This document shows positions 44,816-51,886 of a stretch of DNA of 64,000 nucleotides, one piece after another (positions within the stretch are counted from its first letter, which is position 1; every line of letters starts with the position of its first letter). Below the pieces are notes generated by a model. That model worked only from the letters and a program-made list of their open reading frames with translations, did not search any database and was not told the origin of the DNA. The position numbers and the translations under genes were made by a program. This DNA is from Chiloscyllium plagiosum (taxonomy: Eukaryota), in assembly GCF_004010195.1 (NCBI RefSeq), contig NC_057758.1, positions 1,384,927 through 1,448,926 of the forward strand, written 5' to 3'.

Positions 44816-44928
44816 TCATGTAATAAAACAGCAGATGGCATTGAAGGAACATTCCCTGCTGACGGAAAGCTCATTTGCATCACAGCCTTCTTCTCTGCAG
44901 ATCCCTCCAGCACGCTCACATTTCATTA
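44816..44928 (-). CDS. Beta-defensin-like gene, exon 2 (mature six-cysteine peptide)
   Basis: Acceptor ttcctttcttttttctcag. Phase-1 exon xMKCERAGGICREEGCDANELSVSRECSFNAICCFIT*. Spacing C-X6-C-X4-C-X10-C-X5-CC with GxC before C2 and Glu in the C3-C4 loop fits the beta-defensin signature. Confidence 0.9.
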
Positions 44929-44999
44929 CTGAGAAAAAAGAAAGGAAGTCTCATTTAATACAATGACCAGTACACTAACGGCTTAAAACAACGAAACCA

Positions 45000-46060
45000 C
45001 ACTGAGCATTATGGGGGCCAGCACTGTGCACCGTGCTCCTAGTGTGGTGTAACACAGGTATTTGTTGATCAGAAGAGTGTACATTACCCTTAGTGTGGTC
45101 TAACTTAGAGTATGGGGATTAGGACTATGCACAGTGCTCCAGTGTGGTATAAGTTGGAAGTTGTTGAGGCAGGTATATCAACAACATTTAAAAGGCAAAA
45201 GTTTGGAGGATATTGGCTTAGTGCAGGGAAATGGAATTAGTGTAAGTGTGCACTTTAGCCAGCATGGACCAGCTCCAGCCAAAGGGCTGAAGTTTCATGC
45301 TGCAGGACTCTATGACTCCATAACAAATGGACACAGAGCCAGAACGGTTGCACAGTAGTTAGCACTGTTGCCTCACAGCGCCTGAGACCCGGGTTCAATT
45401 TCCGCCTCAGGTGACTGACTTTGTGGAGTTTGCACGTTCTCCCTGTGTCTGCGTGGGTTTCCTCTGGGTGCTCCAGTTTCCTCCCACAGTCCAAAGAAGT
45501 GCAGGTCAGGTGAATTGACCATGCTAAATTGCCCGTAGTGTTAGGTAAGGGGTAAATGTAGGGGCATGGGTGGGTTGCGCTTCGGCGGGTTGGTGTGGAC
45601 TTATTGGGCCGAAGGGCCTGTTTCCACACTGTAATGTAAAGTAATCTAATCTAAACTGTACACAATGTTCCACGTATGTTTGAAGTGAGTGATATAGTTT
45701 CCAGAAACGTGTACAGTGCTCCCAGTAAGATGTAACTGAGGAATATTATAATTGGAACAGTACACAGTGCTCCATGTTTGGTCTGACAGACCAATCGGAC
45801 GATAAGAATATTGTACTTTGCTTCCAGTGTGCTTAAACGCAGGGATATAGAGATTGGAACTCTGCATGGTGCTCTAAGTGTGGTAAGACTGAGGGACATA
45901 GAGACCAGAACAGTGCATAGGTTCCACGTACGATCAAACTGAGGGATATATTCATCAGAACTTTGCATAGTTCTCCACGTATGGTTAAACTGAGGGATAT
46001 AGTTAGCAGGACATTTGTCAGTGCTCCCATTGAGGCCTAACTGTGGGATATGTAAAAAGA
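45000..46060 (-). repeat. Degenerate ~51-bp minisatellite in the defensin intron, split by a SINE (45345-45655 plus)
   Basis: Recurrent ctgtgcacagtgctcc..tgtggt..aactgagggatat; reverse complement of the core at 54075-54580. Confidence 0.65.
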
Positions 46061-46559
46061 GCTGCATGGTTTCACAGAAAGCAGGTGATATCATGCCTTC
46101 TTTCAGAATTTCATTTTTAGAGATGATTGAATTACCCGGAGATGTCCGAATAACCATTTGACTTGGTCACGTGAGCAGCTCGTAAGTCGCACGAATGGTC
46201 GAATTGATTGGTTGAAAAGAGATAGTTAAAGAAAGTGTGGGAATGGGGTGTAGGTTGGATTATTTTAGGCATATTTCGGCTCGGGAGCATGAAGGCACAT
46301 CCACCAATGACAGAAGAAAGAAAATCAGGATCTGTCCCAAAGGACGCAATTGGAGGTATGTAGATAACTTGCAGGATCGATTGATTCGATGGTATGAAGG
46401 CACAGATCAACCATGATCCTCTTTCATGTCAGTACAGGTTTGAAGGCTGAATGAGTACCCTCTGTGCCAATCAGTATTTTAGCAGATTGAGCACTGAAAG
46501 ATGTATCAGGAACAAAAAAGAAAAATACGTTATCTTTTATTGTTCAAAAATACTCCGAA

Positions 46560-46866
46560 AGGCGGCACAGTGGCACAGTGGTTAGCACTGCTGCGTCACA
46601 GCGCCAGAGACCCGGGTTCAATTCCCACCTCAGGCGACTAACTGTGTGAAATTTGCACACTCTCCCCGTGCCTGCGTGGATTTCCTCCGGGTGCTCCGTT
46701 TCCTCCCACAGTCCAAAAATGTGCAGGTTAGGTAAATTGCCCATAGTTTTAGGTGATGGGGTAAATGTAGGGGAATGGGTCTGGGTGGGTTGCGCTTCGG
46801 CGGGTCGATGTGGACTTGTTGGGCCGAAAGACCTGTTTCCACACTGGAAGTAATGTAATCTAATCT
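46560..46866 (+). mobile_element. HE1-like SINE
   Basis: Full-length copy with A/B boxes and aatctaatct tail. Confidence 0.92.
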
Positions 46867-46980
46867 CAACTCATGCCATTTACGTCATGGTTGCAAGGAT
46901 CAGGAGCAATGCTTTCTCCAGATTTCACTGAGCTTCTCGGATAAGCAGTGAGATGGGTGGAGCACAGACGTTCTTTTATG
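46867..46980 (-). pseudogene. Decayed promoter and signal exon (MRKV type), truncated by a SINE
   Basis: cataaaagaacgtctgtgctccacccatctcactgc..gagaag resembles tataatgagcttctgttctccaggagctcactgc..gagaag (52634-52683). Then CTG-EKALLLILATMT*MA*: start lost, stops present. Confidence 0.45.
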
Positions 46981-48966: not shown

Positions 48967-49017
<51 letters not shown>

Positions 49018-50989
49018 TAAACGTCCTGAGGGTTTCCATTGAGAGAGAATCTGACCATAGCCACTTGACATTCAATTGTATTGCCATCATTGAATTCCCT
49101 CATGATTAAGAACCTGGAAGATTACCATTGACCAGAAGTTGAATTGTAGTCAACAAATCATTAATTTGCTATAAGGCCAGGTTTGATGCTAGCAATCCTG
49201 CAGCGCGAAGCTGACTTCCTGACTCTCTTCCTAAAGCCTGTCCATAAGGCTCATGTCAGCTGTGTGATGAAATACTCTCTATTTACCTGGATGGGTGCAG
49301 CTCCAACTATACTCAAGACACTCAACACAGTTCAAGAGAAATCAGCCCGCCTGATTGACACCACATTAAAAAAGCAGACTTAAACCAGTTTCTTTGTTTT
49401 GGATAATCAAAACGTGAACTTACTGGACAAATCTGTAAGTTTGGCAACATCTGCGAAGAGAAAGCAGAGTGAACGTCTCATCAACTTCACCTTCAAAACT
49501 CAGTAGCCGCATTGTGTACCATTTAATATGTAATACTTTGAAAGTGAAGTCGCTGATAGACAGGATAGTGAAAGCTGCTTTGGTACTCTTGCCTTTGTTG
49601 GTCAGTGTGGGACTGTTGGATCTAATGGCCTGTTTGCACACTGTAGGGATTCTATTGAAACAGGGGTGATGCTTCGTACCTCATTCAAAAGCATCTACTA
49701 CCACCACGGATGCTCGGAAGTACCAGCGTGTTCTATGTGCATGACGAACTGCAGCGATTCAATAAATCTCCTTGTAGATCTCTTTACGAATCCAAGGTGA
49801 GATCTGTCAGCGGATGGTCTGAGAGGATTATGCATGAGGAATATGCTGCACCATGATTTCAGAGATTGTGGCTAAATTAAACTTCACTGGCGCCACATGG
49901 ATGCGCATATTCGAGATTCCACATCTGTCCAGACTCTACTCCATTTGGCACAATAACTGTACCTAACAGCAGAACTGTCCTCAGTGTGAAGGCAACATTT
50001 CATCTTCACCAGGACTGAGTGGTATTCATGCCTACCAGTGATGATGTGGAACAATATATTCGAGGCAGAAAGATGTGTATAAAGGAAGCCAAACACATCA
50101 TTTCCCTTTCTGCTGGTTCACTTGCCACGACCTGCATGAAGACTTTGGCTTTCACAAAACGATCAATGTGTCTATTCTTTGGAGGAACCAAGACTTCCAT
50201 CGTGAAGGCGATTCAAGTCCCAAAACAGAATGGATTAGGAGTACTGGTTCCACTCCACCAGTTTATTACTGGGTTTTTTAACGTTGTAGCGGAAAAGGCC
50301 ATCAGCTGAAGGAGGGTGGTCGGTGGTAATCAGCAGGAGGATTGCTTTACCCTATCTTCCATAATGACAGGGCGTCCCCAGGGCTTGTAACAGATGGATT
50401 TGGCTGTAAGATATGACTCTATATGAATGGCGTTGTTTGAACTACAAGATAAGAATGATTCTGTCTGTTTTTTTTTGTCAACTCCCATTCTAAGGCATTG
50501 AAACAAGTTTTATTGCCACGATTCAGAAAGAAGCAGGTCAGAGGTCATCATGCTCCCAATGTGTTCACTGAAAATATTGAGATAGGGACTGTCCACTGTG
50601 ATCCCAGTGTCTCGAACTGAGGAATGGTGGAGTCCAGAATTACGTACAGTGTGGTATTCCAAAGGGAGATTGAGACCATCCCTACGTCCAGCCAGCAAAG
50701 TCTAGTCTAAACAAGGTATTTGGGGAAAGGAACAGTGTACAGTGATCGCGGTATGTCTGTGTAAGGGATATTGAGACCATAAAGCTTCACAGTGCTCCTA
50801 CTGTGATTTAACCAAGGGACATGCAGTCCAGCTGTGTGCACAGTGCTTTCAGTATCGTGTAATCAAGGGATATGGAGGCCAACCGTTTCTCAGTGACCTC
50901 ATGTTGTCTTACCAAGGGAGGATCCGGACCAATGTTCCAAGTAGTCACTCACCGAGGGAGAGAGGGATCAGAACGTGCACAGTGCTCCC

Positions 50990-51197
50990 AGTTAAAAATC
51001 ACACAAACCCAGGTTATAATCCAACAGGTTTAATTGGAAGCAGCAGTGTGGAGTACAACTGGATGAAGGAGCCACAACCACCTGATGAAGGAGCAGCGCT
51101 CCGAAAGCTAAAGGTTTTCAATTAAACCTGTTGGACTATACTCTGGTGTTGTGTGATTTTTAACTTTTTTCACCCCAGTCCAACACCAGCATCTTCA
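50990..51197. mobile_element. Palindromic Penelope-derived mini-element
   Basis: Inverted arms gttaaaaatcacacaa..ccaggttata.tccaacaggtttaattggaag / caattaaacctgttggactata..ctggtgttgtgtgatttttaac. Confidence 0.75.
51082..51110 (+). ncRNA. Minimal hammerhead ribozyme motif
   Basis: CUGAUGA-A-GGAGC-AGC-GCUCC-GAAAG-CUA; stem III reduced to palindromic AGCU. Confidence 0.75.
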
Positions 51198-51795
51198 AGC
51201 AGTGCTCCCAGTGTGACTAAACCAATGGATAAGTACATCAACTCTATGCGCAATATTTTCTTCTGTATGGAAAATATTAAGAACAGAAGGAGACACAAGA
51301 GCAAGTTACCAGACACTGTTGAAGCGGGTATTATTTGAAAGAACGTTTAAGAGTGTTCGTACAGAGCTCATTCCACAACTCTAGGATGAGACAGCTGAAT
51401 AAAATCCCAAAATGACACACTGTCTGATTTCTTGGAATGCATCATAATTAGAAGGGTATGGGTGACCGGAATTGTTATTTTGACTGGAGGAGATTGAATT
51501 GATTGAGAGGGGCGGGTCAAAGAGAGATATGAAAGCATGTCCCTGTTCAACGTGTAAATGAGGTTACTAAGGACAGCTTCTTGGTGAATATTTGTTGAGG
51601 GTGTAAATTGAACAGTTCTTCGAAATTTCTCCAAAATGAGGTGACAACGTCTCATTCAGAACCAGCGGGAATAGGAATCTGGGCCGATTTAAAGAAAGCA
51701 ACAAAAAAAACACTCAAAAAAAAATCAGTTGCAAAACAGCAAACGCTTGAAGAACTGTATGATTCCACATTTATTTTTCACAGAGATGTACTAAC

Positions 51796-51886
51796 CAGGT
51801 AATAACATTTTTTGCCTCGATTCTCCCTCCGCAATGACGGCTTCCGCAACTACGATGATTATTAGGAGCAAGAGCAGTGATTTCAT
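51796..51886 (-). CDS. Beta-defensin-like gene, exon 1 (signal peptide and short propiece)
   Basis: aagATG; MKSLLLLLIIIVVAEAVIAEGESRQKMLLP plus G, then gttagt donor (phase 1). The phase matches exon 44816-44928, joining as GTA=Val. Hydrophobic core with a V-I-A cleavage motif. Confidence 0.8.

Follow-up and report, generated by a model that had tools for sequence, protein, structure and literature searches.

The window analysed here is a stretch of 64,000 nucleotides (nt) of the genome of the cartilaginous fish Chiloscyllium plagiosum (assembly of 3.56 Gb), corresponding to positions 1384927–1448926 of the 9.98 Mb contig NC_057758.1 (hereafter C49), and the subject of this study is a candidate two-exon gene of the beta-defensin type on its minus strand. 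When exon 1 and exon 2 are read on this strand and spliced in silico, they give 204 nt, comprising an open reading frame (ORF) of 67 amino acids (aa) and a stop codon, with phase 1 at both exon junctions. The two exons, the phase-1 joining and the 67-aa sequence put forward in the original prediction, which had been made from the bare sequence, were reproduced exactly by reading the strand and by a scripted translation, and the AATAAA that it had placed downstream was also found (Table 1). The donor of exon 1, CTG/GTTAGT, matches seven of nine consensus positions by inspection. The cysteines of exon 2 are spaced C-X6-C-X4-C-X10-C-X5-CC, with G-I-C leading into the second cysteine; this spacing fits the beta-defensin criterion C-X4-8-C-X3-5-C-X9-13-C-X4-7-CC with a glycine two residues before the second cysteine, and none of the six cysteines varies when the exon is aligned with those of its family. 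The two-exon layout of beta-defensins, in which a signal/pro exon is joined by a phase-1 intron to a mature exon, is present at the DNA level, with splicing presumed to follow it.

Table 1. Features of the candidate gene and its promoter region, in window coordinates and in the order of transcription.
Feature	Position	Strand	Remarks
TTTATAATGA block, possible promoter element	52011..52024	-	About 130 nt upstream of the ATG; conserved in five of five aligned copies (alignment A3)
TATAAA of the original prediction	51985..51990	-	99 nt upstream of the ATG; specific to this copy, the paralogs reading AACGTTGATCT
Site of the conserved TATA box of the family	51939..51949	-	L029–L031 read GGTATAAAGTG, this copy CGTATGACGAA; box lost (alignment A3)
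Exon 1, coding part: ATG, signal peptide (MKSLLLLLIIIVVAEAVIA) and short pro-piece	51796..51886	-	91 nt; ATG at 51886; stops one base into a codon, followed by GTTAGT
Intron 1	44929..51795	-	6,867 nt; includes the scar left by exon A, together with a CA microsatellite and dispersed repeats
Deletion junction	50541..50557	-	About 458 bp relative to L030, L031 and L032; removed the acceptor, coding sequence and stop of exon A (alignment A4, collinearity gaps)
Residual AATAAA of the 3' untranslated region (UTR) of the deleted exon A	50509..50514	-	Now intronic (alignment A4)
Exon 2 acceptor: polypyrimidine tract and AG, phase 1	44929..44950	-	Tract directly 5' of the exon is ttcctttcttttttctcAG; position common to the paralogs
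Exon 2 ('exon B'), coding part: six-cysteine beta-defensin-like domain, net charge -2	44816..44928	-	113 nt, the last three being the TGA stop (44818-44816)
AATAAA poly(A) signal of exon 2	44676..44681	-	135 nt beyond the stop; among nine aligned copies kept only here and in L004

In the Pfam scan of the peptide the defensin families matched were beta-defensin models only, with exon 2 reaching 13.5 bits on PF13841 (expectation value E of 0.098) against a cut-off of 22.2 and the 67-aa form reaching 10.4 bits on the same model; the hidden Markov model (HMM) search that had been suggested as a check pointed to the expected models and fell short of their threshold. Within the same genome, hhalign matched exon 2 to a profile built from 13 exons of the family, which includes no exon of the B type, with a probability of 97.3% and an E of 2.3e-11, and BLASTP of exon 2 against the exon of L043 gave 12 identities in 31 positions (E 3e-6), where L-numbers denote paralogous loci. 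L043 is a canonical two-exon beta-defensin gene located at C49:5712215-5713745 (L043:516-2052, plus strand). Its mature exon and that of L044 on contig C101976, when scanned directly, score 24.0 and 25.8 bits, respectively, on PF00711 (Defensin_beta), for which the cut-off is 21; a scan of the genome with PF00711 found five exons above cut-off, and a scan with PF13841 gave no match at E ≤ 1. Since the score of the peptide itself lies below the cut-off but the family profile is linked to PF00711, membership rests on transitive homology, and the assignment to the beta-defensin family is in this sense supported, indirectly. The beta-defensin identity given in the original prediction is thus upheld by family homology, by the signal exon and by the predicted fold, and is qualified by the low Pfam score and by the acidic nature of the peptide. 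In sequence-profile searches of the PDB (profiles A1 and A5), beta-defensins were ranked first or second, with E values of just 0.075–8.5. A phmmer search with exon 2 against 1.84 billion representative sequences returned a single match, the 569-aa repeat protein P0001, in which PLSVSRSC was matched seven times, and this match was judged to be spurious.

A model of the domain obtained with AlphaFold2 (AF2) on an alignment of nine family exons has a predicted local distance difference test score (pLDDT) of 83.4, with strands at residues 9–11, 19–22 and 31–35. As the original prediction had anticipated for a structural check, the model matches beta-defensins first both in Foldseek and in VIA-align: rows 1–19 of the Foldseek search of the PDB are all vertebrate beta-defensins, with template-modelling (TM) scores of 0.6–0.75 and root-mean-square deviations of 1.4–2.8 Å, and in VIA-align, among 48,161 chains, 33 have Z ≥ 2, the top seven of which are beta-defensins (Z of 4.6–3.5) and the remainder mostly other defensin-like peptides. 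In the ESM Atlas the best clusters belong to PF00711, with scores of 0.85 and 0.80. The three-stranded antiparallel β-sheet of the beta-defensins is predicted by these structural results, which agree with one another, each being weak alone.

The candidate gene belongs to a large set of related exons. In a search of the six-frame translated genome, exon 2 gave 37 matches at E ≤ 10, 16 of which (self included) lie below an E of 0.02, many of them on C49 and on a second contig, C50; those further off in sequence are exons of the canonical form C-X6-C-X4-C-X10/11-C-X5-CC. All nine of the family acceptors examined leave two nucleotides before the frame, corresponding to phase 1. About 25 paralogs of exon 1 are present in the genome, and exon 1 is 59–63% identical to the signal exons of the canonical two-exon genes on C49. 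This contig carries at least 12 exon-2-like matches and at least eight signal-exon matches, with more on C50. The reading we prefer, to which we give about even chances, is that of a diverged gene in a lineage-specific beta-defensin family clustered mainly on C49, whose two remaining exons would together give the 67-aa precursor of a secreted peptide. In the same family, the locus L034 contains two distinct intact six-cysteine exons less than 9 kb apart on opposite strands, at C49:7839220-7839411 (-) and C49:7847924-7848061 (+), within a dense run of defensin-like exons at 7.84–7.86 Mb of the contig.

The locus has diverged from other copies of a repeated unit that comprises a signal exon, a proximal mature exon (exon A) and a distal mature exon (exon B), the last of which is represented by exon 2 of the window. 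The interval 52600–44300 of the window is collinear, at 67–72% identity, with L029 (C49, 6.02 Mb), L030 (C95001), L031 (C100892) and L032 (C49, 3.53 Mb). L029, L030 and L031 are 96–98% identical across the promoter and the signal exon, and could represent either duplicates of very recent origin or haplotigs of a single locus that were left unplaced; they are best not treated as independent copies. In L030, L031, L032 and L041 (C88159) the signal exon is followed about 1.5 kb downstream by an intact terminal six-cysteine exon A that carries a stop and an AATAAA of its own, and the homologue of the exon 2 of the window lies 5–8 kb beyond exon A and is disabled. An intact exon A and a broken exon B are thus found in all four of the other units that could be assessed, L029 being left out of this count as its exon A falls in a run of N. 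The close paralogs of exon B are disabled in 14 of 15 cases by lost cysteines, stops or a 34-nt duplication; the one open paralog, in L008, has seven cysteines and its first loop is shortened. No signal exon or exon A was seen in the 10 kb preceding the sister units L004 and L005, with 1.5–2.4 kb of each stretch being N. Since exon A has been deleted from the window and its exon B is canonical, the window is the sole unit without A that keeps a canonical B, and exon B provides the one phase-1 acceptor left for the phase-1 donor of its signal exon.

This arrangement suggests, tentatively, a reading that we regard as somewhat unlikely on present evidence: that an ancestral signal exon served alternative A and acidic B exons, that the copies were resolved reciprocally and that this locus became committed to B, as the working gene of an acidic beta-defensin subfamily. 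The descent of the locus itself, which is part of the preferred reading, is from a unit with its signal exon, exon A about 1.5 kb downstream and exon B 5–8 kb further; in this copy a clean deletion of about 458 bp took exon A and left the tail of its 3'UTR in place. For the present locus we infer splicing, expression, processing, disulfides and activity as follows. Transcription would start upstream of 51886 and the donor of the signal exon would be spliced to the acceptor of exon B; exon B is the only downstream phase-1 terminal exon, and the product would therefore be the 67-aa precursor. By our reading of the -3/-1 rule the signal peptide may be cut after VIA19, after which the six cysteines would form the C1–C5, C2–C4 and C3–C6 knot of the three-stranded beta-defensin fold, and a small acidic peptide with a net charge of -2 would be secreted. 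Its role in host defence might be that of a signal, a modulator or a partner. An acidic peptide is less likely to act by cationic membrane attack, so a signalling or modulating role appears more plausible than the classic mode, which is speculation; among the sister A-type exons the net charge ranges from -2 to +6. A precedent for a single signal exon serving two alternative mature exons is the mammalian SPAG11/EP2 compound locus, in which two beta-defensin-derived modules stand in tandem and mature exons can be joined to a signal exon that precedes them. The present locus differs in having no remnant of a second signal exon and in the deletion of its proximal mature exon, and it offers no evidence for alternative splicing or a second promoter.

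The argument for a working gene comes from the conservation of its parts. Exon B is 78–84% identical to its paralogs, versus 55–74% in the flanks, and the terminal branch leading to the window has a length of 0.115 in the exon tree versus 0.219 in the flank tree (Poisson P of 0.010); judged from these branches, exon B is evolving more slowly than the neutral rate. The signal exon has a ratio of nonsynonymous to synonymous substitution rates (dN/dS) of about 0.33 relative to L029–L031, and the context of the ATG, the donor CTG/GTTAGT, the acceptor and the AATAAA are all preserved. In a neutral simulation with 0.219 substitutions per site, the ATG, the donor, the acceptor, the open frame and the six cysteines all survive with P = 0.0033, a value which is uncorrected and post hoc, the locus having been picked as intact, with about 4–16 copies to correct for; the simulation treats substitutions only, and counting insertions and deletions would lower P further. 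In the same simulation exon B alone survives with P = 0.019 and the signal exon alone with P = 0.18. Taken from the sequence in this way, neutral decay that left both exons intact seems unlikely.

Apart from this correction and the subthreshold Pfam score, several observations weigh against a working beta-defensin gene. With P = 0.019 for exon B alone, roughly 0.3 intact copies are expected by chance among 16, and the dN/dS of exon B relative to its paralogs is 0.33–1.33, which is non-significant (Fisher P of 0.07–1.0). The conserved TATA box of the family is destroyed in this copy: the TATAAA that the original prediction had noted upstream is present, but it is a new site, some 40 nt upstream of the TATA position of the family, and is not the conserved box. 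The AATAAA that once belonged to the 3'UTR of exon A now lies within the intron, which at 6.9 kb is atypical for the family (about 0.9–1.5 kb in the sister genes), a length explained by the deletion of the original partner exon of the signal exon. The net charge of the predicted peptide is -2, both for exon 2 alone and after the predicted signal cleavage, while typical defensins are cationic. Searches of a word index gave no relative outside this genome for the 67-aa form and, for a 10-exon alignment, six candidates outside it, none of which reached E ≤ 1. Finally, the Foldseek E values of 0.24–0.69 are non-significant and the VIA-align Z values are all below 5, as is understandable because the domain has only 36 aa, and AF2 may impose the beta-defensin fold on any peptide with this cysteine spacing.

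A first alternative is that the locus is a recently dead relic: exon A and the TATA box have been lost, the two remaining exons would simply not have been broken so far, and no stable peptide would be produced. We consider this a real possibility, though short of a probable one; since the conserved TATA box is mutated here, a decaying copy remains a serious rival. With 14 of the 15 close copies of exon B being pseudo-exons, B appears to be generally dispensable, its dN/dS is not significantly below 1, and one intact exon B among about 16 copies is not improbable by chance; the deletion of exon A and the atypical intron fit the same picture. However, a relic would have had to keep both exons and four splice and start signals intact through the divergence recorded in its flanks, with a branch of exon B about half of the neutral length and with the AATAAA, acceptor, donor and ATG context all retained. 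An intact B in the one unit without A is, moreover, the pattern expected had B become the working exon. When sequencing runs were searched with 29 sampled words of exon 2 and its 3'UTR, no RNA run was listed; four runs of unknown type from one study contain 0.79–0.83 of the words and two runs from another organism contain 0.07–0.10, and these were not used as evidence.

The working-gene reading also depends on the choice of exon 1, as exon 1 was assigned to exon 2 from phase, order and strand only and the usual intron of the family is about 1–1.5 kb. Exon B might instead be expressed from an unrecognized other first exon or promoter, or within another transcript, in which case the 67-aa model would be wrong at its 5' end. 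This appears improbable, since no further hydrophobic phase-1 ATG exon lies upstream: of the 221 ATG...GT stretches in phase 1 that precede the acceptor, exon 1 is the most hydrophobic (4.09), those ranked second to ninth are CA/TG microsatellite artefacts and the remainder do not exceed 2.86. In addition, no second signal-exon remnant was found between exon A and exon B in any unit. The two-exon pattern as such is not explained by chance: the six-cysteine motif is present a single time in the six-frame translation of the window and was seen in three of 300 block-shuffled windows, and just one ATG exon that is hydrophobic and ends in a phase-1 GT donor lies at most 10 kb upstream, against none in 300 shuffles. 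That the ORF arose by chance and its cysteine pattern is fortuitous could be suspected from the length of just 67 aa and the non-significant direct Pfam match; this explanation is practically negligible and effectively refuted by these shuffles, by the many paralogs with an identical cysteine frame and phase and by the hhalign match to the family profile.

When compared with known systems, the proposed gene of an acidic peptide shares with the vertebrate beta-defensins (PF00711/PF13841; for example human hBD-2, 1fd3, mallard AvBD3, 7lzl, and crocodile CpoBD13, 7t9q) the six-cysteine spacing and the GxC motif, the arrangement of signal exon, phase-1 intron and mature exon, and membership of a clustered multigene family; its predicted three-stranded fold superposes on theirs at 1.4–1.8 Å over 31–35 residues. 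It differs from them in its net charge, its direct HMM score and the length of its intron. As for L043, its signal exon, which starts with MKSLLLLLIVLVLVEPITADGESRP..., is homologous and 59% identical to that of the window (with MKSLLLLL... and GESR in common), the donor phase is identical and the mature exon is related. However, the mature exon of L043 passes the Pfam cut-off, is cationic (+3) and has its phase-1 acceptor 1.3 kb downstream of the signal exon, whereas the window copy would use a distal exon of the B type. The big defensins (oyster Cg-BigDef1, 6qbk) have a C-terminal domain of like fold (Z of 3.2), but the locus has no N-terminal hydrophobic globular domain, the 30 residues before exon 2 being the signal peptide and a short pro-piece.

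In the parts of the full-text literature covered, no description of a chondrichthyan beta-defensin was found, subscription journals and automatic shark-genome annotations lying outside this scope; for sharks and skates, the only entries in section 14 of a 2019 review are transferrin, squalamine and kenojeninin (PMC6795676). The Pfam-grade beta-defensin exons in a large cluster reported here would place the family in the cartilaginous fishes besides the bony vertebrates, an occurrence that is largely expected by specialists and apparently poorly documented. If the reading of a working exon B were true, cartilaginous fish would possess an acidic beta-defensin subfamily not described before, with this locus as its surviving working gene. 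It may be regarded as a small natural experiment, with a shared signal exon, one mature exon lost and an acidic survivor, and the peptide, if expressed, would be a candidate for non-classical defensin functions.

Several repeats lie within the intron of the candidate gene. The CA/TG microsatellite at 48954–49016 has 32 copies and is a source of spurious ORFs rich in cysteine and valine; a tandem repeat at 45841–46002 has a period of 50–51 nt, with 2.3–3.2 copies and 73–80% matches. A dispersed repeat of about 300 bp at 46561–46863 is 78% identical to L030:1007-1310 in inverted orientation and has the appearance of a short interspersed element; another inverted copy sits closer to exon 2.

Elsewhere in the window, six runs of N totalling 3,254 bases lie at 7133–23705 and inflate the list of long ORFs there; when twelve long ORFs of the window were compared with Pfam, just one subthreshold match, to a domain of unknown function (DUF), was obtained. 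Repeated ORF fragments reading GVCTFSPCLRG... are found at 3275–3331, 3847–3876, 12218–12274 and 13644–13673, and these are probably copies of one transposable element, similar to part of exon A by chance only.

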